Positions 8,150 through 50,002 of a stretch of DNA of 58,249 nt are shown here, piece after piece (the stretch's first letter is position 1; each line of letters starts with the position of its first letter). The translations under genes and the position numbers were made by a program. The notes under the pieces are model-generated. The model made no database searches, had not been told where the DNA came from, and saw only the letters and a program-made list of their open reading frames with translations. Origin of the DNA: a virus (taxonomy: Duplodnaviria; Caudoviricetes); IMG/VR virus record IMGVR_UViG_3300043432_000295, positions 1 through 58,249 of that record. One strand, given 5' to 3'.

Positions 8150-11100
8150 GTGCAGCGCATCACCGGGCTGCCCGACGAGCAGGTCGCCGCCTTCGAGGAC
8201 CAGATCGAGGCCGCCGTCCGGGCCGCCCTGGACCAGGTCATGGAGACAGTCGCGCGCCGCGTCGAGGCCGCCATGCCGGTCCTGGCCGGCGCCCTGGTCG
8301 CCGCGGACCCGCCGCCCGTTCCGCCCAGTGACGGGCTTCCGCCGGGGCAGCCCTACGTCTCGCCGGATGATCTGGCCTCGATCCCGCCGCTGTGGCAGAC
8401 TGCGGTCGAGCAGCAGATCCTGCCCATCGTCGCGCAGGTGTTCATGTCCTCGGTCGGCCACGTCCACACCGGAATGGTTGACGCTTCAAACATTCCGGCG
8501 CTGCCGTCGGTCGGCTCGTTCGCCGCTGAGCAGTACCTGGCTCAGGCGCAGAACACCTTCGACCAGATCGGCGACAGCCTCTGGTCCACCGCCCGCACCC
8601 AACTTTCCGAGGGCTTCGAGGCCGGCGAGTCCATCCCGCAACTGGCCACGCGACTGCGGGACAGCGCCGGCGTGACCGCCCGGACCGGTGTGCTGGTTGC
8701 TCGGACGCAGGTCATCGAGGCCAGCAACGCCGGGTCGTTCGCCACCGCGCAGGCCTCCGGGCTGGCCATGAAGAAATTCTGGATTGCTACGGATGATCTA
8801 CGGACCAGGCCCGAGCATCTGGACGCGGAGAGCAACTACAGCCCAGGGGGCACGCCTGGGCCCATCGATCTCAACGAGCCGTTCATCGTGGGCGGCTTCT
8901 CGGCCATGTTCCCGGCTGCACCATCACTGCCCCCATCGATGCGCTTCAACTGCAGGTGCACTCAGGGCTATGTCATGCCCGATCAGGCCATCACCAAGAT
9001 GCGAGAAAATCTCGCGCAACAACAGGCGCAGGAAGAGTTGCCTGGGACCGAAGGTCCACTCACACAGTTCTTTCCGAAGGCCACCGGCCCGGGATTTGAC
9101 GAGCCGGCCCGGGGCGCCTTCGTCGACCAGAGCTACGTCCGCCCGACGCTGCGCGGAGCGAAGACACCGCGAGAACTGCGGCGCGTCTGGCAGGACGAGG
9201 TCTCGGCTCTCACCGGGTTCCCGTTTCAGGTGGCGCCGATCCCGGCCGACATCTCGATGGTCACGGCACGCGAGTACGCCGAGGGCACGCTGCAGATGTT
9301 CGCACAGTTTCCTGAGGCGCGCATGGATCGGATTGTGTGGTTCAACGATCCGACGAGCAGCTCGTACGCGCAGGTGCGCCGAGGCGGCCACGCCATCGAG
9401 ATCAACATGCGGTATGCCAGCGAGAAGGGGCGCACCGCCTTCCTGGCCGCGCGTCGCCGCGACGTGGCCGGCTGGGACACCGGTGACACGTCCTGGAGTG
9501 TGCGCAACGACGTGTCCGGCCAGGGCGTCATGTACCACGAGTTCACCCACATCCTCGACCTGGAGAACACACGCGACGTCGTCGCCTCAAAGATCCTGCC
9601 GATCTTGCTGCAGCACTCCGGCACCGACACGATCGAACACACGATCGCCACCCGGATCTCCTCCTATGCGGCTAGCGACAAGTACAACGAGTTGATCGCC
9701 GAGGCCGGTACCGACGTGATGGTCAACGGGGCAGCGGCCAGCCAGCTTTCCCGCGACATCTTCGACGTGCTCCGCGCCGAGTACCGGGCTCGCGGATTTG
9801 GCCTGCGCACTGGTCCGGTGGGCGAGGTCTTTCCGAAGGTGGCCGGCCCGCGCCCGGTCTCGTCGATGACGGTCGCGGATCTGCGGGCCGAACTCAAGGC
9901 CGCCGAGGTCGCGATACCCCCGGGTGCGCGCAAGGCCGATCTGACGCGCCTGGTCGAAGACCAGCGACGCGCTGTGCCCGGAGAACGTGTCGGCGTATCG
10001 CCGCCTGCCGTCGCGCCCACCGCCACTGCGCGTCTGGCCACCATGAAGGTCGGCGAGCTGCGCGACCTGGCTCGCGCCCGCGGCGTCGAGGTGTCGGCCA
10101 AGGCGCGCAAGGTCGACCTCGTCAAGGCCCTCTCTGAGCCGACGCCTCCTATCCCGTCCGCTGCAACTGCCGTCGCGCGTCAGGCCGTCATCGACGAGCA
10201 GCGCGCCGTCGCCGATGCCCTGTCCGAGGCCCGTCAGCTTCTCGACCGGCAGGCCAGCGCCCGGGCCCTCGCTTCGCGTGCCGATGCCATCGCGGCGCGC
10301 ACGAACGGGGTGCAGCCGCTCGTCGACGCGATGCGCGACGGCGACGCGGCAGCCATCCGACGCGCGGTCGACGACCTGGCCGCCCGACGCGGCCTGGTCG
10401 AGGTCGGGTCGCCACCGGCCGGTCAGGACTGGGTGGCGTTCAACCCGCAGGTTCACGAGGTACTGCCCGGCCTGCCCCGCCCGGCGGCCGGGGCTTATGT
10501 GCGCATCACGAAGCCTGCCTACCGCGCCGACATCAACGGCGAGCAGGTTCAGCTGGGCAAGGCTGTCGTCGAGCCGCTCGACGCGGCCGAGATCAAGGCC
10601 ATCCAGCACGCCCCCGCCGAGGCCGCCCGCCGCTCCATCGCGGTGCCGGAACGCGTCGCCGCCCAGCAGGCCGAGCTACGACGTATCGTCGACACCCCCC
10701 TGGCTGGACAGCCGCACCGCATCGGCGGATCCGGGGCCATCAACAACATGGAGCGCCACGAGGGCGGCACGGTCATCACGAAGGACTACAGCCGCAACTC
10801 TGCCGCCATGGGCGTGCGCGATGCCGACGCCGAAGAGCTCGGCGCGCTGGTCATGGACGCCCTCGACGTGCCGACTCAGACGGTGCTGCGCACCGGCGAC
10901 CGCAGCATTGTCGTGTCGGTCCTCGAGGGCGAGCACCCAGAGGCCATCGGTCCTCTGGCCACGGCGGCGCAGCGCACAGCGCTCGCGCAGACCGACGGCG
11001 GGCGGCTGCTGGGGTTGGCCGACACGCTCATTGGCAATGCTGACCGTCGCCGCAACTGGGTGCGGCTGGCCGACGGTCGTCCCGCCAGCTATGACCTGGG

Positions 11101-12622
11101 TGGCGCCTTCCGCGCCCCGAAGCTTGCCGCGCCGGCCGACCCCGAGGCCATCTTTGCCCGGTTCCTGTCGGCGGACGGGAAGGCGTGGGCCAGGTCCATC
11201 GACATGAACCCGGCCGACCTGGCCGTCATCCGCACACGTCTCGAAGCGCTTCGACCCGAGTTTGAGCGTCTCGGCCGGGCTACCTGGCATCGGCAGGTCA
11301 TGGCGCGCCTCGTCGAGGTTGAGAAACGCGCCGACCCCGCCGCCCCGCTGCGCCTGGCGACCGACCGGGCCGCTCAGCGTGCCGCGGTCCGTACCCGGGC
11401 CGCGAAGGTGCAGACCCAGCGCGCCAACGCCGCGCTGACCGCCCGCGTCGAGGAGCTGCTCCAGGCCAAGGCCAGCAAGGCCGTCATCCGCCAGGAGCTG
11501 GATCCGGCGCTGCGCGAGGCGGAGCAGCTCTATGCCGGCGCCGACCCTGCCCTGGCCGGTGCGCTGCGCACCGCCCTGGACTCCGGCGACACGGCGAAGC
11601 TGCGGGCCGCCCTGTCCCGCCAGACCAAGGCGTCGGGCATCACCCCGATCGGCAAGGCCGGCGGTAAGGCCAAGTTCGACCCGGCCACCATGGAAGGCGT
11701 CGGCGGCACGCACATCCCTGACGGTGTGGATGTGGTGGTGGTTCGCCGCGGCGCGCGCATCGACGGCGTCGACACACCCGAGCGGGCCATCGTGCGCGCC
11801 ACGTCGAAGCCACTGCCACAAATCTTGCGCGATGTTTCCGTTCAGCCAGGGCGGGACATTCTGACTCAGGTTTCCCACGGTCATCAGGACTGGGTAGGCG
11901 AGGCGGTCCGAGCGGCCGACGACTTGACCAGGATCGGCAATCCGGTTCTGACGGCCGCGGTCCGTCAGCAGGCGGGCTGGTCGGATCCGGCACTAACGCT
12001 CACCGCCAGGGAATTGGATGACGCGGTAGCAGCCGGATGGACCGAAATGTGGCGTGGCGTCAGTACCTGGTCGACGGAGGAGGGTCTGACTGCTGCTCGG
12101 ATTGCTCGAAACACGCCGCGGGGCGAATGGATCCAGGGCGACGGGCTGTACGGCAACGGGTTCTACACCACACCGCGTCGAACTACGGCCGAGGGTTACC
12201 GTCAAAGCAACTATGGTTACAGCAATGAAGGGTTCGGCCCTGGTCCACTCTTCGAGTGGCAGGAAGGATTTGACGTCGTGGAGCCGGGCGGAATCCTGCG
12301 AATGGCATTGAACCCGGCAGCGAAGATCGTAGATTACGAAGAGTTGCTGTTGGAATACCAAGAGTGGCTGCGTACTCCCGCCGCTCAGGCGCTAGGGTTG
12401 GCCAGTCGGGACAGCAGCTTCTATGCCGTTCTGCGAGGCTATGATGGTATTCGGATCCGCGGCGTACATGGCATCAACGATGGATCCGAATATCCGAGCG
12501 GCGTGACCAACGATCACGAAGCTGATCAGTACATCATTTTCAACCGAACAGTCCTGGTGTTTGAGCGGCCTGGTCGGCGTTTTGACAACGACCGATACGT
12601 GAGGGGGTTGTCGCGGGCATGA
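8150..12622 (+). CDS. MuF (SPP1 gp7-like) minor head protein fused to multiple effector domains
   Basis: KFWIATDDLRTRPEH...NCRC (MuF); HEFTH; two HeH/Rho-N-like repeats; DTLIGNADR..N..YDLG; WRG...GLYGNGFY...GYDGI...QYIIFN. Confidence 0.85.
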   Translation: MQRITGLPDEQVAAFEDQIEAAVRAALDQVMETVARRVEAAMPVLAGALVAADPPPVPPSDGLPPGQPYVSPDDLASIPPLWQTAVEQQILPIVAQVFMSSVGHVHTGMVDASNIPALPSVGSFAAEQYLAQAQNTFDQIGDSLWSTARTQLSEGFEAGESIPQLATRLRDSAGVTARTGVLVARTQVIEASNAGSFATAQASGLAMKKFWIATDDLRTRPEHLDAESNYSPGGTPGPIDLNEPFIVGGFSAMFPAAPSLPPSMRFNCRCTQGYVMPDQAITKMRENLAQQQAQEELPGTEGPLTQFFPKATGPGFDEPARGAFVDQSYVRPTLRGAKTPRELRRVWQDEVSALTGFPFQVAPIPADISMVTAREYAEGTLQMFAQFPEARMDRIVWFNDPTSSSYAQVRRGGHAIEINMRYASEKGRTAFLAARRRDVAGWDTGDTSWSVRNDVSGQGVMYHEFTHILDLENTRDVVASKILPILLQHSGTDTIEHTIATRISSYAASDKYNELIAEAGTDVMVNGAAASQLSRDIFDVLRAEYRARGFGLRTGPVGEVFPKVAGPRPVSSMTVADLRAELKAAEVAIPPGARKADLTRLVEDQRRAVPGERVGVSPPAVAPTATARLATMKVGELRDLARARGVEVSAKARKVDLVKALSEPTPPIPSAATAVARQAVIDEQRAVADALSEARQLLDRQASARALASRADAIAARTNGVQPLVDAMRDGDAAAIRRAVDDLAARRGLVEVGSPPAGQDWVAFNPQVHEVLPGLPRPAAGAYVRITKPAYRADINGEQVQLGKAVVEPLDAAEIKAIQHAPAEAARRSIAVPERVAAQQAELRRIVDTPLAGQPHRIGGSGAINNMERHEGGTVITKDYSRNSAAMGVRDADAEELGALVMDALDVPTQTVLRTGDRSIVVSVLEGEHPEAIGPLATAAQRTALAQTDGGRLLGLADTLIGNADRRRNWVRLADGRPASYDLGGAFRAPKLAAPADPEAIFARFLSADGKAWARSIDMNPADLAVIRTRLEALRPEFERLGRATWHRQVMARLVEVEKRADPAAPLRLATDRAAQRAAVRTRAAKVQTQRANAALTARVEELLQAKASKAVIRQELDPALREAEQLYAGADPALAGALRTALDSGDTAKLRAALSRQTKASGITPIGKAGGKAKFDPATMEGVGGTHIPDGVDVVVVRRGARIDGVDTPERAIVRATSKPLPQILRDVSVQPGRDILTQVSHGHQDWVGEAVRAADDLTRIGNPVLTAAVRQQAGWSDPALTLTARELDDAVAAGWTEMWRGVSTWSTEEGLTAARIARNTPRGEWIQGDGLYGNGFYTTPRRTTAEGYRQSNYGYSNEGFGPGPLFEWQEGFDVVEPGGILRMALNPAAKIVDYEELLLEYQEWLRTPAAQALGLASRDSSFYAVLRGYDGIRIRGVHGINDGSEYPSGVTNDHEADQYIIFNRTVLVFERPGRRFDNDRYVRGLSRA

Positions 12623-40971: not shown

Positions 40972-41541
40972 TCAACGTCCCGCAGGTGCCGGAGAAACCG
41001 GCGCCGCTCCTGCGGCCTCGAGCATCTTGTTCGCCTCGGCAACAGTGGCCGGCAGCTTCGGCGCGCGCGGCTTGCGAGCAGGAGTCGTCTTCCGGGCGGC
41101 CGTGCCACGGGTCCGCGCCGCCTTCTTGCCAGCCGCCACCCGCACCGGGTCCTTCGCCCGGACACGAGCCTTGACCGCCGCCGTCACAAACTCCGACAGG
41201 AGGTAGGCGATGACAGTCCACAGGTTCGCGCACTTCGCTCCGAGCGTCCCGCCGGCGATGAAGTTCGCCGTCCCGGACACCGCGACCGCCAGCACCAGGA
41301 CCACAAGCGAGGTCCAGAAGCCGCGGCGGGCCACATCAGGAATGTGCAGAGCGATGTTGCAGGTGATGGCAAGCAGGTCGACGGTGAGCGGCACCGCAAG
41401 CTGGGCCATCTGGTCAACGCCCCACGTCGCCAGCAGTTCGCGCTGGTGGCCGTAGGACACCGCCGCCGCGACGATCATGATGGCCGTCGTCGAGAAGCGG
41501 GTTCGTTGGAACGCAGTCAGGCTGCGCAGGTACTGGAACAT
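40972..41541 (-). CDS. DUF2637-like membrane protein with basic C-terminal tail
   Basis: AVSY.H..EL...PLTVDLL, S.TAN; several TM segments; SD GGAGG. Confidence 0.75.
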   Translation of the reverse strand: MFQYLRSLTAFQRTRFSTTAIMIVAAAVSYGHQRELLATWGVDQMAQLAVPLTVDLLAITCNIALHIPDVARRGFWTSLVVLVLAVAVSGTANFIAGGTLGAKCANLWTVIAYLLSEFVTAAVKARVRAKDPVRVAAGKKAARTRGTAARKTTPARKPRAPKLPATVAEANKMLEAAGAAPVSPAPAGR

Positions 41542-41922
41542 GGTGGTCTCCCTCCACCAGGCCACCCCGGTTGGGTGGCGGGAGTGCGAGCGCCGGGTGT
41601 GAACCCGTCTGGGGAGATGCCTGCTCGCTGCGCGCGGACGGAGCCGGGCTCGACGTCGCTGCGCTGGTCTTAGGTGCCGGGGATGCCGCCCCGGCGCGCG
41701 ACCTACGTTGGCCCTACGCCCGCCGTGTCACGCTCCGGCAGCCCCACGTCCAGCCCTACTCACATGGCGGCTGGATCTCCCCTGGCCAGTTGTCGTACGG
41801 CCCTGGTAACGCCCGTCGTTACGACTCGGGTGCCGCGCTGATCAAGGCTCAGCGGCTAGGCCTTGGCCTGACGGCCACGGCGTGGGCGTAAAGGCGAATG
41901 GTCTTACGCCCCACCGGAGGTG
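41542..41922 (-). ncRNA. ~380-nt structured intergenic RNA / leader
   Basis: No credible ORF; nested helices, long-range GGGGAGAT/ATCTCCCC, T-loop-like GGGTTCACACCC, ends in the SD-hairpin module. Confidence 0.55.
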
Positions 41923-42150
41923 TCAGGACGTGCGGGCGTGCTTCTCGGCGATCTTCCAGAACTTCTCCTCGTCCACGATCTGCTCGAAGCCGGCCGTGTT
42001 GAGTAGCTCGTTCCCGTTGGCGTCGTGGTCGACCCGGTACTCGAACGCCGCGGCGAAGATCGCATCGACGTCGTAGTCCGGCTCGGTGATGTCCTCGGGG
42101 AACTGCTGGGCGATCGCGTCGTCCTTCGTGGTGTACCTCTTCGTGCTCAT
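41923..42150 (-). CDS. small acidic actinophage protein
   Basis: YTTKDDAI...DYDVDAI...FWKIAEKH; SD GGGAG. Confidence 0.75.
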   Translation of the reverse strand: MSTKRYTTKDDAIAQQFPEDITEPDYDVDAIFAAAFEYRVDHDANGNELLNTAGFEQIVDEEKFWKIAEKHARTS

Positions 42151-42340
42151 GGCGACTCCCATCGCTATGGCAGCGGTGTTGCTGCGTGCGCGGCGGCCGA
42201 TCTGTGAGCGCGCCGCCGCGCTGGGGTTCGAGCACCACGCCCGATGACGCTGGTCGTGGCCTGTCGCGCTTTCACCCCGAAGTGATCCAGAGGTGGGCGC
42301 CGGGGCCTCGAACCCCGGTGGCTGCCAGCCACCCGTCCGG

Positions 42341-42580
42341 TTAGTTGATGCAGCACCGGTAGTCACCGCATGGCGCCAGCGGGCACGGACCACTGTCGTG
42401 GAAGTGTCCGCACAGGCAGCAGATGTCCGCTCCGTGCTCGTCGCCGCAACAGCACCGCATGGTCCCGAGGACCACGCCGTGCTGCTCGCCGCAACGCGGG
42501 CAGGTCACCACGTCGATGAGCTCGCCCTCGATGACCTCGATCACATCAGGCAGGTTCTTGCGAACCACCAAGTCGCTCAT
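42341..42580 (-). CDS. Cys/His-rich small protein
   Basis: CPRC, CCC, CCLC, CP..PC...CC; SD GGAGG. Confidence 0.7.
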   Translation of the reverse strand: MSDLVVRKNLPDVIEVIEGELIDVVTCPRCGEQHGVVLGTMRCCCGDEHGADICCLCGHFHDSGPCPLAPCGDYRCCIN

Positions 42581-42676
42581 GTCGGTCTCCCTCCGACCTG
42601 GCCGAGTTCCGCTCGGCGCGGTTCTGGCCTGACGGCCACGGCTCCGACCGGTACGAGACCGGCCGGACCGGAGTCC

Positions 42677-42850
42677 TCAGGATTCCACGACCTCCGCACG
42701 TTCCTTCGTCAGGAAGGTCTGGCCGTCCACCGGGTCGATCCTGCCGAGGAACTCGAAGATGTCCTTCGCGGCCTCCTCGACCGTCACGCCGGTGGTCCTG
42801 GCCCAGCCCTCGACGTCCGCGTCGATCTCGAACATGACCTGGATCTTCAT
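42677..42850 (-). CDS. 57-aa acidic hypothetical protein
   Basis: MKIQVMFEIDADVEGWARTTG...VVES; SD GGAGG; below the ORF-track cutoff. Confidence 0.7.
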   Translation of the reverse strand: MKIQVMFEIDADVEGWARTTGVTVEEAAKDIFEFLGRIDPVDGQTFLTKERAEVVES

Positions 42851-42928
42851 GTCGGTCTCCCTCCGACGTGCCGTCCCTTGTGGACGGATGAGCGAGCGGC
42901 AGGGGTTCGACCCCCTGCCGCCCTTCGA

Positions 42929-43219
42929 TCACCGGACCATCCGTACCTCGTACGTGGTCTCGCCGAAGCACGACTGGAGCTTGCACTCCCGGTCGCATCC
43001 CAGCCAGACATCCCAGCCCTGAACCGGGCTCTCCGATACCCACAGCAGCTTCCCCCACGCGTCGGTGTCACCCATGCTGTTGTGGCAGTGGGCGACCTCG
43101 ACCTCGTTCAGGTACAGCCACAGCTGGTCAGTCGGGATCTGGCCTTCCCAGGTACCGTTCTGTGGCACCCGGCGCGGCGAGCTGAACAGCGGCGGATAGG
43201 TCTTGGCGGTGTCGTTCAT
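42929..43219 (-). CDS. hypothetical protein
   Basis: SD GGAGG; first gene after the long leader. Confidence 0.7.
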   Translation of the reverse strand: MNDTAKTYPPLFSSPRRVPQNGTWEGQIPTDQLWLYLNEVEVAHCHNSMGDTDAWGKLLWVSESPVQGWDVWLGCDRECKLQSCFGETTYEVRMVR

Positions 43220-43717
43220 GTGGGTCTCCCTCCCACAGGACCGTCCGGTGTGGACGGTCGGAGTGGACCCGAAGGGGATCGAACCCTTCTGCGGTGGGCG
43301 TTACGCCTCGGTGGTCGTCCAGGCTCCCCATCCGGCATCCCGGCAGAGCCGGGCCTTGCAGTCCAGGGCCCCGAGGGTGCGGTCGCGGGAGTGCGGTGTC
43401 GCGCTCGCCCCGGGGCGGGATGTTGCGGCCGGCCGCGCGCTGACGCGCTGCGTGCCCGGCTCCGTGCTCGGCCTGTCCGCGGCGTTCGTCCGTACCGGCT
43501 AGAGGCGCTCGCGGCTCGGGGGCTATCCCCGCCTGTCCTACGCACTGCCCGGTCTCGTTCTCGTCGTCGTTTTGGCTTTCGTACCCACGCGCTGGTGGGG
43601 TGGTTCCCGACAGGGCTCCTGCTGCCGCTCGCGCGGTCCCGGTTTCTCCCTGGTGGTCTGGGCTTATGTTCGGCCGTGGGGCCGGTCTGGATTTCAAGGT
43701 CTTCGTCTTGCCCTTCT
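43220..43717 (-). ncRNA. ~500-nt structured 5' leader / ncRNA
   Basis: Lies between a promoter and the first SD; overlapping ORFs look non-coding; many inverted repeats; T-loop-like GAAGGGTTCGATCCCCTTC. Confidence 0.55.
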
Positions 43718-43723
43718 ACCTCC

Positions 43724-43751
43724 AGTGTAGCATCCCGGGATGCCTGGTCAA
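43724..43751 (-). promoter_or_regulatory. Promoter of the minus-strand block with palindromic spacer
   Basis: TTGACC-16-TACACT; spacer contains the perfect palindrome GCATCCCGGGATGC. Confidence 0.7.
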
Positions 43752-43798
43752 GTCAGAGCGAGGGGATCCAACTGTCGGATACCTGACAGACCGGGATA

Positions 43799-44002
43799 CT
43801 AGGTGCGGGTACGGCGCCAACCCTTACCCGGACGATTATCCAACCACCGCCGCGCCGTCGACTCCCACCACCACGGCCGGGCATGCCCCGCCTCCAGATC
43901 ATGACCATCCGGAGACGGCAGATTCGCCCGGCCCAGCGACCGGATCGCAATGCCGGCCAACTCGGCGATGTCAGCCCGATACAGCTTCCGGCACGACGTC
44001 AT
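43799..44002 (-). CDS. Xis/AlpA-like HTH DNA-binding protein
   Basis: LYRADIAELAGI...LPSPDG...PWWWESTARRWLDNRPGKG; TATGAT-7-ATG leaderless. Confidence 0.7.
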   Translation of the reverse strand: MTSCRKLYRADIAELAGIAIRSLGRANLPSPDGHDLEAGHARPWWWESTARRWLDNRPGKGWRRTRT

Positions 44003-44082
44003 ACCCACCATCATACATCCCAGACGGTCTCTCCCGGGGACGCGGCGTTAGGTCGCAGGCACGTCCCCGGGAGCGGTTCCTG

Positions 44083-44325
44083 TCAGTACAGCGACTCGGC
44101 CCGGATCCGCCCACTGGCCAGACCGGCCTCCAGCGCGTCCAGCCCGCTGACCGCGACCGCACGCAACACCCGCGCCTGCGAAATGCGGTACCGGCTCGCC
44201 AACGCCTTGATCCGATTCTTCGTCTCGGGTGTATCGAGCCAGACGAGTTGAGCGGTGTAGCGGGCGGCTGCTTCGGTGCCACGGTATCCGCCGCGTGCGA
44301 CGGGCTCAACGCTGCTAGATGCCAT
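44083..44325 (-). CDS. ribbon-helix-helix-like regulator
   Basis: RYTAQLVWLD-TPETKNRIKALASRY-RISQARVLRAVAVSGL (strand-helix-helix pattern). Confidence 0.6.
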   Translation of the reverse strand: MASSSVEPVARGGYRGTEAAARYTAQLVWLDTPETKNRIKALASRYRISQARVLRAVAVSGLDALEAGLASGRIRAESLY

Positions 44326-44333
44326 ACCCCAGC

Positions 44334-44370
44334 ACACTACTTGACGTGTCACTAGGTGGTCAACTAGCGT
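44334..44370. promoter_or_regulatory. Overlapping divergent promoters with operator copy 5
   Basis: Plus TTGACG-18-TAGCGT-6-ATG(44377); minus TTGACC-18-TAGTGT-8-ATG(44325); operator 44341-44356. Confidence 0.75.
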
Positions 44371-44376
44371 CGGGTC

Positions 44377-45318
44377 ATGCAGAGTAAGACGCCCTGGCTG
44401 AACCGTGCGCCCAGTACCGCCGTGCCCTACCAGCAACTCCCCGCCGTCGCGGCCACCGCCACGTCACGGGACCACTTCAGCCACTCCTACCTGCAACGCT
44501 ACGAATCATGCGCCTTGTCGGCCATGCTCGGCGACGCGTCACAGGCCAGCCTGATCGGACCCGGCCGCCCAAGCTGGTCACAGGTCGCCAGCCGCGCCTT
44601 CCACACCGCAGTCACGACGATCGAACGCGCCGCCCTCGCCGGCGTCACCATCGCCGACGACCCGGCCACACTGTGGACCGCACTGTTCGACACAGAGATC
44701 CAAGCACAGTTGACGGCGGTGGCCGGCACACCGCACGCCGACTCCAGCACCTGGCACGCGGCCAACCGCGGCAAGGAAGGCTTCGACTGGTGGCGCCTAC
44801 AAGGCCCCAACATGATCAAACTGTATGTGGCCTACCACAACCCGACCTGGCGCAGCCACAACCAAACCCTGCTGCTGCACGACAAGACCCCCGTCATCGA
44901 CGTCGACTACGACATGACAATCCGCAGCCTCGACGAGGAACGCGGCCTGCACATCCAAGGCATTGTCCCCCGGGCGGTCCTGAACGTGCGGACCTATTCG
45001 GTGACGGTCCTGGCCTGTCTGGTCGAGTCGTCGGTGGAGTCCACCTTTGAGCTCGGCGAGTACGGTCACGCGCTGCTGATGGCGATGGGGATTCCGGCCG
45101 AGCCCGCCGACCGGCCGATCCTGGGCCAGTACTGGCTGGCCCGCAAAGGCGTCTACAGCAGGCCGGTCCGCGTGTTGCAGCAGCATCCGCTGGCCGAGTT
45201 GCAGTACCGCTACGACCAGGCACTACGCGGTACCCGGGGGAGGGTGTTCGCGGCGAACGTGTCCAGTTTCTGCGCGGGTTGTGATGTGAGGGACTACTGT
45301 CCGACTCAGACCCATTGA
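44377..45318 (+). CDS. Cas4/RecB-like PD-(D/E)XK-fold protein, catalytic motifs degenerate
   Basis: HFSHSYL..YESC, AFH, C-terminal FCAGCDVRDYC; G-x-I-D and D-x-K not recognisable. Confidence 0.7.
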   Translation: MQSKTPWLNRAPSTAVPYQQLPAVAATATSRDHFSHSYLQRYESCALSAMLGDASQASLIGPGRPSWSQVASRAFHTAVTTIERAALAGVTIADDPATLWTALFDTEIQAQLTAVAGTPHADSSTWHAANRGKEGFDWWRLQGPNMIKLYVAYHNPTWRSHNQTLLLHDKTPVIDVDYDMTIRSLDEERGLHIQGIVPRAVLNVRTYSVTVLACLVESSVESTFELGEYGHALLMAMGIPAEPADRPILGQYWLARKGVYSRPVRVLQQHPLAELQYRYDQALRGTRGRVFAANVSSFCAGCDVRDYCPTQTH

Positions 45319-48307: not shown

Positions 48308-48507
48308 TGCCGCGCACGATCGGCACGATGCTCGACCTGTCGGTGCTGTGCTTCTACGACGCCTGCCCCGAGTGCTACGACCCGGACTGCCTGTGCCACT
48401 GCCACGACCTGGACGACCTTGAGCCGCTGGAGTTGGACGAGGCGGCCGAACGTGCGGCCGAGATCGAATACGACACGCGGGCGAGGAGACGGGAGGCGAC
48501 CCGGTGA
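48304..48507 (+). CDS. small Cys-rich acidic protein
   Basis: C...CPEC...CLCHCH. Confidence 0.55.
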   Translation: MMPRTIGTMLDLSVLCFYDACPECYDPDCLCHCHDLDDLEPLELDEAAERAAEIEYDTRARRREATR

Positions 48508-49157
48508 CTGTCGAACTCATCCGTACGCCAGAGGACCGCTGCGTCCACTGTGACCGCCCGATCTACCTCCAAGGCATGTGCGCCCTGCTGGCCGACCCGG
48601 GGTTCGTCGACGAGGTGTGGGCCGAGGTCGCGACGCTGGCGCACGAGGGCATCGACATCACCCGCCACGCCGGGCGGTGGGGCGGCTGGCCGCTGCCCAA
48701 CGTCGAGGTCGGGGTGTCGGCCGAGGATCAGTACTGGGCCGGGCTGCGCCTGCCCGCCCTGGAGGCGACGCCGGCCGCGGTCCGGTTCGTCTCGTGCGAG
48801 CCGCTGCTGGGCCCGATCGACCTGTCCCGCTGGGTCGGGGCCGAGTTCGGCCTGGACGGCCGCTGGCAACCCGCCCAGACCGGGATGGTCGGGTCGGCCG
48901 GGCGGGAGCGGGCGTTGGACTGGGTGATCGTCGGCGGCGAGTCCGGCCACCACGCACGGCCGGTCGAGGAGTGGTGGATCGGGGACCTGGTCGACCAGGC
49001 CACCGCCGGCGGGGTGCCGGTGTTCGTCAAGCAGCTCGGCACCGCCTGGGCCCGCACCCACGGCCAGCCCGGGAAGGGCACCGACCCGGCCGGCTGGCCT
49101 GAGCACCTGCGCATCCGCCAGCTGCCCACCCCCGCCCGGGCGGGGGTGCGGGCGTGA
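48504..49157 (+). CDS. DUF5131 (Gp37/Gp68-like) C-terminal portion
   Basis: WPLPNV..GVSAEDQ, RFVSCEPLLGP, LDWVIVGGESG, VFVKQLG; N-terminal Cys motif missing. Confidence 0.75.
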   Translation: MTVELIRTPEDRCVHCDRPIYLQGMCALLADPGFVDEVWAEVATLAHEGIDITRHAGRWGGWPLPNVEVGVSAEDQYWAGLRLPALEATPAAVRFVSCEPLLGPIDLSRWVGAEFGLDGRWQPAQTGMVGSAGRERALDWVIVGGESGHHARPVEEWWIGDLVDQATAGGVPVFVKQLGTAWARTHGQPGKGTDPAGWPEHLRIRQLPTPARAGVRA

Positions 49158-50002
49158 CGGCCGAGGGTACGGCCGGGCGAGGGTTCTTCCTCGGGGCCCA
49201 TCAGCCGGGCTGGTTACGTGATGGCCGGGCTGCGTTGTTCGTCTCCGACCGCCAGCTGCGCGGCTACCGCCGGCTGCCGGTCGCGGGCCGGGCGTGGGCG
49301 CTGGACTCGGGGGCGTTCACCATCCACCTGCGGCGGGAGTCGTTCGACCCGCCCGCCGTGTACGCGGCCCGGGTCCGCCGCTACCAGGAGGAGATCGGCC
49401 AACTGCGGTGGGCCGCGCCGCAGGACTGGATGTGTGAACCGGCCATGCTCGCCCTGACCGGGCTGAGCGTGGCCGAGCACCAGCGCCGCACCGTGGCCAA
49501 CTACGTGGCGCTGCGCGACGTCGCGGCCGACCTGCCGATCATCCCGGTCGTGCAGGGCTGGACCATCGAGGACTACCTGCGCTGCGTCGACCTCTACGCC
49601 GCCCCGATCACCCGCGGCGGCGCCGGGGTTGACCTGACCACCATGGACCTGGTCGGTATCGGCACCGTGTGCCGCCGCCAAGCCACCGCCGAGGCCGGCC
49701 ACATCATCACCGCCCTGCACGCGGCCGGCGTCCGGCGCCTGCACGGGTTCGGCGTCAAAGTGCTCGGGCTGCGCCGCTACGGCCACCTGCTCACCTCGGC
49801 CGACTCGATGGCCTGGTCCCTGGCCGCCCGCCGCAGCCCCTCCCTGCCCGGCTGCGTCCACGCCAACTGCGCCAACTGCCGCCGCTACGCCTACCCGTGG
49901 TTCGACACCACCGCCGCCGCGTTCGCCGCTGCCCACGCCCAACCCCGCCAGGCCTACCTGTTCGGCCACCCCACCAGCACCCCCATTGGGAGGACCGCGT
50001 GA
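49154..50002 (+). CDS. TGT/DpdA-like (queuine tRNA-ribosyltransferase fold) protein
   Basis: ALDSGAFT, APQDWMCEP, PVVQGW, GTVCRRQ, LHGFGVK, SADSMAWS, H.NCANC. Confidence 0.8.
   Translation: MTAEGTAGRGFFLGAHQPGWLRDGRAALFVSDRQLRGYRRLPVAGRAWALDSGAFTIHLRRESFDPPAVYAARVRRYQEEIGQLRWAAPQDWMCEPAMLALTGLSVAEHQRRTVANYVALRDVAADLPIIPVVQGWTIEDYLRCVDLYAAPITRGGAGVDLTTMDLVGIGTVCRRQATAEAGHIITALHAAGVRRLHGFGVKVLGLRRYGHLLTSADSMAWSLAARRSPSLPGCVHANCANCRRYAYPWFDTTAAAFAAAHAQPRQAYLFGHPTSTPIGRTA

Follow-up and report, generated by a model that had tools for sequence, protein, structure and literature searches.

Punctuation or processing signals that resemble tRNA have been described in organelles and in a few long RNAs of eukaryotes. 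The stack of acceptor and T stems, together with the T-loop, is the surface recognized by RNase P, RNase Z, and the CCA-adding enzyme. Here we describe a tRNA-like element in the window, that is, the whole stretch of DNA analysed, a viral record of 58,249 bp with an estimated completeness of 82%. On its minus strand, the part from 43220 to about 43718 is most likely a modular leader that is not translated and that heads a leftward operon of an uncultured phage of Actinobacteria. Judged from the comparison of related sequences, this leader is real, conserved, tRNA-derived, and structured, and it stands outside tRNA, transfer-messenger RNA (tmRNA), YrlA, and any Rfam family. The reading that we favour, with a probability of roughly 0.4, is that the tRNA-like element would direct RNase P- or RNase Z-type cleavage of the modular 5' leader, in the manner of the t-elements of plant mitochondria.

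In the Arabidopsis cox1 5' leader, as PMC1920247 describes it, the 3' end of a t-element is the mature mRNA's 5' end and is cut by RNase Z, and t-elements mark 3' ends by way of RNase P. The window shares with this system a non-canonical fold that resembles tRNA, has a conserved T-arm, and lies in an mRNA leader; the T-arm reads GGTTCRANYCC there and GGTTCGATCCC in the window (PMC1920247). The two differ in that t-elements belong to an organelle and not to a bacterial phage, and in that cleavage has been mapped there and would be a prediction here. Furthermore, in the phage a module of a hairpin and a Shine-Dalgarno (SD) hairpin comes after the element.

A small tRNA-like fold with no usable anticodon, carried in a long transcript, is also found in mascRNA and menRNA (MALAT1, NEAT1; RF01684), which are processed by RNase P and RNase Z. 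RF01684 is the only Rfam family that the element touches, with 15.8 bits in the window and 25.1 bits in its relative L004, both far below the gathering score of 42.5. This family is eukaryotic and nuclear, and no homology is claimed.

YrlA, like the present leader, has a tRNA-like module. The module is a tRNA mimic found in Actinobacteria and some mycobacteriophages, and that of M. smegmatis is cut by RNase P and receives CCA (PMC4201824). Unlike the leader, YrlA is in that description a separate small RNA gene, which adjoins the Ro60 (TROVE) gene and has a Ro-binding stem (PMC4201824). PF05731 (TROVE) is found in none of five phage records searched, and a control search detects it in two reference genomes.

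The phage RNAs C4 and CI act by antisense pairing to downstream start regions. Pairing of the present leader with the five translation-start regions of its operon is no better than that of shuffled sequences, with no significant complementarity (RNAduplex z -1.4 to +2.1). C4 RNA of P1/P7, CI RNA of P4, and M3 RNA of phi80 are cut by host RNase P from phage leader transcripts, as the leader in the window may be. They are described as hairpin-like and as having no equivalent of the T-loop, whereas the window element has a canonical T-loop (PMC5499578).

The SD hairpins of the window recall the start-associated sequences (SAS) of Cluster K mycobacteriophages, which have a 13-bp consensus, 5'-GGGATAGGAGCCC, at 3-7 bp before start codons; for the extended repeats (ESAS) that account gives little support for RNA pairing (PMC3203893). 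The layout is alike, with symmetric flanks around the SD just before the ATG of non-structural genes of varied families, often preceded by an inverted repeat (PMC3203893). The sequence is a different one. The window motif is G(T/G)NGG-AGGGAGA-CCNNC (also GNNGG-AGGGAGA-CCNNC), its stem lies 0 nt from the ATG instead of 3-7 bp, and here covariation supports RNA hairpins for the SD stem as well as for the inverted repeat upstream of it. A word-matching search of a limited literature library found nothing on a tRNA-like element in a phage operon leader.

Structure and conservation of the tRNA-like element

The element, its parts, and the related hairpins of the window are listed below.

43263..43364, minus strand: tRNA-like element, 102 nt (alignment A5, RNAalifold, and pair counts; 96.9 bits with model R1)
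43360-43364 with 43265-43269, minus strand: acceptor-like helix, part of the element
43339-43353, minus strand: window-specific hairpin CCCGGC-TCT-GCCGGG, part of the element
43295-43330, minus strand: long anticodon-like arm of 4+4 bp with a 12-nt loop, part of the element
43271-43289, minus strand: T-arm GAAGGG-TTCGATC-CCCTTC with a 6-bp stem, part of the element, with A43264 and C43263 after it
43368..43416, minus strand: hairpin P0, GCCCCG (43411-43416) with CGGGGC (43368-43373), seen by eye
42301..42317, minus strand: another T-arm-like hairpin, CGGGG-TTCGAGG-CCCCG, where the 79-aa and 75-aa genes leave a gap

A tRNA-like module of 85-102 nt is common to seven leaders of uncultured actinophages (alignment A5). 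By RNAalifold and by our own pair counts alike, the module has an acceptor-like helix and a 6-bp T-arm; its D-region is variable, and its long arm has 4+4 bp and a loop of 12 nt. All 147 aligned cells are paired, and 7 of the 21 pairs are changed on both sides. The covariation score is 0.451; shuffles give 0.154 +/- 0.034, with none of 500 attaining 0.451, and sliding the partners gives no more than 0.118. These statistics are generous because the seven sequences represent about two clades and the alignment that was tested had also served to derive the structure. The leader is very probably non-coding, conserved, tRNA-derived, and covarying.

Among the relatives used here, L008 is a viral record with an estimated completeness of 100%, L018 is a contig binned with a Micromonosporaceae metagenome-assembled genome (MAG), and L019, L020, and L023 are metagenome contigs with the same kind of leader. 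The leaders of L054, L057, L072, L073, and L074/L075 were found through other modules.

Paired changes are found in all three helices. In the T-stem they are GAAGGG/CCCTTC, GCAGGG/CCCTGC, and GGCCGG/CCGGCC, and in the long arm TGGG/CCCA, TGCG/CGCA, and TCGG/CCGA. The acceptor has GGACT/GGTCC, GGACT/AGTCC (L019), GCCCT/AGGGC (L008), and GCCCC/GGGGC (L018). A smaller hairpin, GGCG-TAA-CGCC, was rejected: it is broken in two of the seven sequences, and the alternative long arm makes those changes compensatory. Two further elements have other sequences and the same build, each with 7+5 bp, namely L057 (GGCTTCG/CGAAGCC and CCCAG-TTCGACT-CTGGG) and L073 (GGACTTT/AGAGTCC and GCGGG/CCCGC, with a non-T loop). 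In total, eight of nine elements have the T-loop TTCRANY, and eight of nine have an acceptor and T-stem stack of 11-12 contiguous bp, L004 having a 1-nt bulge. The P0 stem is 5, 6, or 7 bp long depending on the relative, with both strands changing together (GCCCG/CGGGC in L019, GCCCCCG/CGGGGGC in L018; by eye).

The T-arm-like hairpin at 43271-43289 had already been picked out in an earlier sequence-only reading of this DNA, and the comparison with chance bears it out. Hairpins with a 5-bp stem and a TTCRANN loop occur twice on the two strands of the 58-kb window, with a shuffle mean of 0.42, and both lie in non-coding parts of the minus-strand operon. The first of them is part of a real, conserved RNA structure. 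For the second one (42301-42317), no convincing acceptor pairing is seen by eye.

The T-arm of the window is built as in genuine tRNA, with a 6-bp stem, a TTCGATC loop, and a 12-bp stack with a 1-nt gap, and model R1 also matches a genuine tRNA at 19.9 bits. The remainder of the architecture is not that of tRNA: the acceptor-like helix has 5-6 bp, the D region consists of variable hairpins, and the anticodon-like arm has 4+4 bp and a 12-nt loop. ARAGORN finds no tRNA gene and no tmRNA in the window, and a search of 42500-44500 up to E 10 gives no match to RF00005. In tmRNA the acceptor is formed by the 5' and 3' ends of the RNA; here the two acceptor strands lie about 95 nt apart inside the leader. 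A short open stretch ending in TAG, which bears on a possible tag frame, is found in the middle segment of the window leader and is absent from relatives.

Descent from tRNA-Arg and the start module

Over its last 26 nt, which run from the T-stem to the 3' end, an actinomycete tRNA-Arg(CCG) matches L018 and L023 at 26 of 26 positions (string comparison) and L008 at 25 of 26. The 5' strand and the CCG-containing anticodon region of this tRNA are also recognisable in the element (CCGGAGGCGT vs ACCGAGGCGT). Therefore, the element is a remodelled copy of tRNA-Arg. Since the D and anticodon arms are remodelled, it cannot decode. When 401 actinomycete genomes were searched with the leader DNA of L008, 41 had matches, of full length only in G001. 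Apart from the L018 genome itself, these matches are short, and the best of them lie in tRNA-Arg(CCG) genes. Of six short-match loci run through ARAGORN, two have a tRNA-Arg gene and four have no tRNA. The window element is more diverged from tRNA-Arg than the versions of its relatives. Its T-arm and 3' acceptor strand have no match at up to one mismatch in the 401 genomes, and the matches with two mismatches, in 18 genomes, are other tRNAs.

Elsewhere in the operons of the relatives, non-coding stretches contain smaller tRNA-like elements of 52-110 nt. Folding of single sequences yields an acceptor, one hairpin, and a T-arm for L006/L007, L002, L020:1705-1769, and the second L019 element, the last two of which end in ACCA. 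The acceptor again shows paired changes (GGAGCG/CGCTCC in L003 vs GCGGCG/CGCCGC in L006). In L002 the element is located downstream of the 96-aa gene (the first gene of the window operon) and not upstream, and L019 and L020 have two to three tRNA-like elements each.

A tRNA gene of 90 nt is found at L005:1783-1873 (plus strand), about 2 kb upstream of the L005 leader. It reaches 53.5 bits with the Rfam tRNA model, and ARAGORN assigns to it a four-base anticodon (ggga).

Directly downstream of the tRNA-like element is a second conserved module, made of two hairpins, that recurs along the operon.

43239..43259, minus strand: hairpin H1, GACCGTCC-ACACC-GGACGGTC, 8 bp, beginning 4 nt past the tRNA-like element (13-copy alignment)
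43220..43236, minus strand: SD hairpin GTGGG-AGGGAGA-CCCAC, with the SD in the loop and the stem abutting the ATG at 43219-43217 (13-copy alignment)
42851..42867, minus strand: SD hairpin copy 2, GTCGG-AGGGAGA-CCGAC, before the 57-aa gene (motif search)
42581..42597, minus strand: SD hairpin copy 3, before the 79-aa gene (motif search)
41542..41558, minus strand: SD hairpin copy 4, GGTGG-AGGGAGA-CCACC, before the DUF2637 gene (motif search)

The two-hairpin module stands ahead of four of the five operon genes in the window, and nine further copies exist in six relatives. In the 13 aligned copies, four of the six counted pairs of H1 change on both sides. The SD hairpin is paired in 65 of 65 cells, and three of its five pairs change on both sides. 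For the module as a whole, 95.8% of 142 cells are paired, 7 of 11 pairs are changed on both sides, and the covariation score is 0.492, compared with 0.122 +/- 0.031 for shuffles. The full tRNA-Arg-derived element, its recurrence in the operons of relatives, and this repeated start module had all been missed in the sequence-only reading.

At L054, L072, and L074/L075, a hairpin module containing CATCTCCCC is found in place of the tRNA-like element. CATCTCCCC is complementary to part of the GGGAGA SD sequence and could be a putative anti-SD element.

The leader, its promoter, and the operon

The other features of the leader and the operon are as follows.

43724..43751, minus strand: sigma-70-like promoter TTGACC-16-TACACT with an extended -10 TG (promoter scan)
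43730..43743, no strand assigned: perfect 14-bp palindrome GCATCCCGGGATGC, located in the spacer of the promoter, a candidate operator for a repressor
43572..43722, minus strand: 5' domain of the leader, starting GGTAGAAGGGCA, common to the window, L020, and L004
43417..43571, minus strand: variable middle segment, about 150 nt of which the closest relatives L004 and L020 lack (leader comparison)
42929..43219, minus strand: first operon gene, 96 aa, ATG at 43219-43217, third-position GC 0.88, with no known family (PHROGs, Pfam)
41559..41922, minus strand: second long non-coding gap, about 360 nt, before the DUF2637 gene (by eye)
40972-41541, minus strand: DUF2637 gene, last of the operon (Pfam match)

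In the promoter scan, 42000-45000 contains a single sigma-70-like site (43751..43724, minus strand; shuffle mean 0.3), so that the promoter proposed earlier stands. In eight of eight homologous leaders, a -10-like hexamer lies 4-7 nt ahead of a common GTAGAA-like start (by eye), and transcription in the window presumably starts near 43716-43719. The palindrome GCATCCCGGGATGC has a single copy in the window and taken alone is no better than chance (one match or more in 54 of 100 shuffles). The promoters of L008, L018, L020, and L004 each have a palindrome of their own across the spacer or the -10 box, e.g., GATACCCCGGGGTATC and CGCTAGCG (by eye). Differing palindromes at the same promoter position suggest phage-specific operators, and GCATCCCGGGATGC is a putative repressor operator.

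Homologous leaders range from 254 to 512 nt. The window-type 5' domain is represented by three sequences, too few for covariation. In the second leader type, about 75 nt of the 5' domain are nearly invariant in sequence, and no covariation is found there (covariation term +2.08; 2 of 31 pairs). Covariation is seen only in the 3' part of about 140 nt.

As a whole, the leader folds no better than expected from its composition. The 503-nt leader has a minimum free energy of -219.6 kcal/mol, compared with -214.4 +/- 6.7 for shuffles (z -0.78; 23 of 100 shuffles equal or better), and the z of the L004 leader is -0.08. The nested inverted repeats described earlier are present, with CATCCCG at 43416-43422 and CGGGATG at 43336-43342, but with this folding energy they are no evidence of structure; the CGGGATG half falls within a 13-nt insertion that the closest relatives lack. 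Neither the whole window nor the relatives' leaders contain any Rfam family at the gathering score. A search of 42500-44500 gives four chance-level matches at E <=10, none of them GOLLD, ROOL, or other large RNA. The suggestion of a large non-coding RNA like GOLLD or ROOL is not supported, given the ordinary overall folding energy and the absence of any Rfam family at threshold in the window.

The absence of a credible open reading frame (ORF) over about 500 nt is confirmed. The frame of the 96-aa gene holds six stops within the leader, and no ORF is conserved in extent or frame among eight homologous leaders, in which ORFs vary in frame, start, and length. The three longest ORFs overlapping the leader, 43128-43697 (minus), 43216-43545 (minus), and 43203-43502 (plus), have no PHROGs families, and the first and the last of these have no Pfam families. 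Downstream of the promoter, the 96-aa gene is the first with codon-like GC periodicity. Oddly, GC in the phase of its third codon positions stays at 0.80-0.93 over 43220-43570, about 350 nt into the leader, where the frame is closed.

The 96-aa protein has six IMG/VR relatives with 81-90% identity and no tblastn match in 50,697 phage records. Of these six, only L004 has the window-type leader; four have a different long leader and one has a short leader. The gene behind the leader differs between phages, and therefore the leader goes with the promoter and not with a particular gene. The homolog check by blastn proposed earlier returned nothing: the window leader (megablast, blastn) and the L008 leader (blastn) have no match in the same 50,697 records. 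The homologues came instead from the IMG/VR relatives and from k-mer (short conserved word) scans of viral, metagenome, and genome collections. Nine of 16 loci from the word scans are chance matches within unrelated coding DNA. An exact scan of viral contigs for the 25-mer of T-arm and acceptor gives none. The GGAGCYTGRACGANCACC pattern gives 26 loci, of which two are L008 and L009 and the other 24 have no R1 match at E <=0.1 (35 loci searched). The CCCCACCAGCGCGTGGG pattern gives six loci, of which only an already known contig is real. Over 151 Micromonosporaceae genomes, with few candidates per genome scored, model R1 finds the starting genome only.

The window has a GC content of about 68% and a siphovirus-type gene set. 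Terminase, portal, capsid, tape measure, and lysin genes are on the plus strand up to about 41 kb, followed by a short minus-strand block and then by replication and recombination genes on the plus strand. Its capsid is only about 30% identical to capsids of cultured Microbacterium, Mycobacterium, and Gordonia phages, indicating an uncultured actinophage lineage. The phage is probably temperate. A tyrosine integrase is found in two of five records tested (G002, G003), 1.6-2.4 kb upstream of the element and on the same side, and the window, at an estimated completeness of 82%, shows none. Small genes of DNA-binding type lie in between in L004. By this arrangement, the leader promoter looks like a regulated promoter beside the lysogeny module.

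The gap at 41559-41922 is made of sequence modules that recur in leaders and gaps of L003, L005-L007, L019, and L020 (by eye). Directly past the stop of the 96-aa gene, at 42896-42921 (minus), is a perfect 10-bp GC hairpin, GCGGCAGGGG-GTCGAA-CCCCTGCCGC, which has no U tract and could be a U-less terminator or a processing site. Elsewhere, a DpdA homolog (PF23859, E 1.4e-83) at 48504-50002 (plus) adjoins a DUF5131 protein, a pair that by homology points to 7-deazaguanine-type DNA modification genes. The ORF at 8150-12622 (plus; 1490 aa) has a MuF-like head-morphogenesis N-terminus and, in its mid-part, short matches to endonuclease VII/HNH-like and Arc-like families.

Proposed processing of the leader and rival explanations

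Evolution has kept a tRNA-length stack of acceptor and T-stem with its T-loop and has let the decoding parts go, and for this reason we read the element as a processing signal. Transcription would run from the palindrome-bearing promoter through the leader, and host tRNA-maturation nucleases would cut the primary transcript at the tRNA-like element. This cut would part the long 5' leader from the mRNA. The mRNA would then start a few bases ahead of the GC-rich hairpin H1, which may shield its 5' end, and the second small hairpin would display the SD in its loop.

Several points weigh against cleavage at the element, beside the generosity of the alignment statistics given above. The columns around ACGANCACCGAGGCGTAACGC in the long-arm loop are uninformative in their invariance because they were fixed by the search pattern. 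The acceptor-like helix of the window has 5-6 bp instead of 7, and a 7-bp acceptor is among the points made for tRNA-like recognition (PMC4201824). No CCA comes after the window element (A-C-U-C-C). The leaders of L054, L072, and L074/L075 have the same 5' or start modules and no tRNA-like element; with three such leader types, the element is dispensable in some phages. Among 24 matching sequencing runs, two, from one sample that is possibly the source, contain at least half of the words, and two RNA libraries contain small shares. These two libraries have one contig each, from relatives, over 43118-43396 and 43584-43698, which contain no ends or joints. Since they may be DNA carry-over, they are no evidence of transcription. 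Finally, the 26-nt identity with the 3' end of a host tRNA also resembles the core of a phage attachment site (attP).

The leader or its cut pieces may instead be a stable RNA acting in trans, either as a mimic of tRNA by which tRNA-binding proteins of the host are bound or titrated or as a small regulatory RNA with a protective tRNA-like 3' end. Candidate targets could be modification enzymes, a synthetase, or tRNA-targeting toxins and defences. The retained T-loop consensus and the remnant of the CCG anticodon agree with this, and so does the second-type 5' domain, whose near invariance over about 75 nt with no covariation is what a sequence-specific contact predicts. In addition, the tRNA fold of YrlA is proposed to be protective (PMC4201824). 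Nevertheless, such a role is unlikely: the Ro60/TROVE gene is not found in any of the five phage records, the leader has no significant complementarity to the five start regions of its operon, and the element is missing from some related leaders. There is a similarly slim chance that the early leaders of this actinophage group are made of degenerate tRNA-Arg copies and a conserved 5' domain that are processed to several small RNAs, with the tRNA-shaped pieces as mimics. If this is true, the mimics could be decoys for host defences or toxins that target tRNA, or baits for synthetases and for enzymes that modify tRNA or add CCA, and the leader would be a phage counter-measure made of RNA and not mere punctuation.

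It is quite unlikely that the tRNA-like element serves, alone or beside another role, as the attachment site of the phage, in which case integration would take place at the 3' end of a host tRNA-Arg gene and the att core would be the identity block. What speaks for it is the identity of the 3' 26 nt of tRNA-Arg(CCG) in L018 and L023 (25 of 26 in L008) and the integrase located on the side of the element in G002 and G003. An attP has no need of the 5' acceptor strand, yet this strand is present and changes together with the 3' strand (L008, L018, L019). The integrase is separated from the element by 1.6-2.4 kb with intervening genes, and the integrase loci L081 and L082 have no T-arm-like hairpin. 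One site per genome would be expected, and L019 and L020 have two to three elements each. In the window no integrase was found, and the T-arm and acceptor strand are unmatched at up to one mismatch in the actinomycete genomes searched. In the MAG contig of L018, the element is inside phage DNA, with phage genes on both sides.

The HK022 put antiterminator consists of two stem-loops that act in cis on RNA polymerase. A leader of this kind, in which the nascent RNA alters RNA polymerase or controls read-through of GC-rich hairpins of the operon by antitermination or attenuation, is quite unlikely here. The leader does lie immediately past the promoter and has a conserved 5' start, and GC-rich hairpins with no U tract exist downstream (H1 at 43239-43259 and the 10-bp hairpin at 42896-42921). 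However, a terminator scan of 42000-45000 finds no terminator on the minus strand, and the part that covaries is tRNA-shaped, which the put model does not explain.

The same low chance is given to a functionless, decaying array of phage tRNA genes, of which the leader would be a cluster remnant behind an early promoter. Descent from tRNA-Arg, the several degenerate copies per operon, the genuine tRNAs near L005 and L020, and the loss of the element in some relatives are all expected from a relic. Neutral decay, however, would break the stems, whereas three helices have stayed paired as both of their strands changed and the decoding parts decayed, and the T-loop is kept in eight of nine elements.

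That the stretch encodes a protein is extremely improbable: the 189-aa ORF 43128-43697 is open and the third-position-phase GC stays high through 43220-43570, but this ORF starts with TTG, overlaps the 96-aa gene out of frame, has no PHROGs, Pfam, or tblastn match (the last against the 50,697 phage records), and shows no conservation at the protein level, its frame extending over 69 aa in L020 and over 40 aa in L004 and being absent or replaced by other frames in the remaining leaders, while indels between the relatives' leaders are not multiples of three.

If processing at the tRNA-like element is true, tRNA punctuation would extend to phages of Actinobacteria, in the form of a tRNA-derived element with a full T-loop that is kept by compensatory evolution and coupled to a start module. 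The long non-coding gaps that are often unannotated in such genomes would also gain a concrete, testable function. The SD hairpins, moreover, offer an RNA-level reading of start-associated sequences, whose role has stayed open since 2011.

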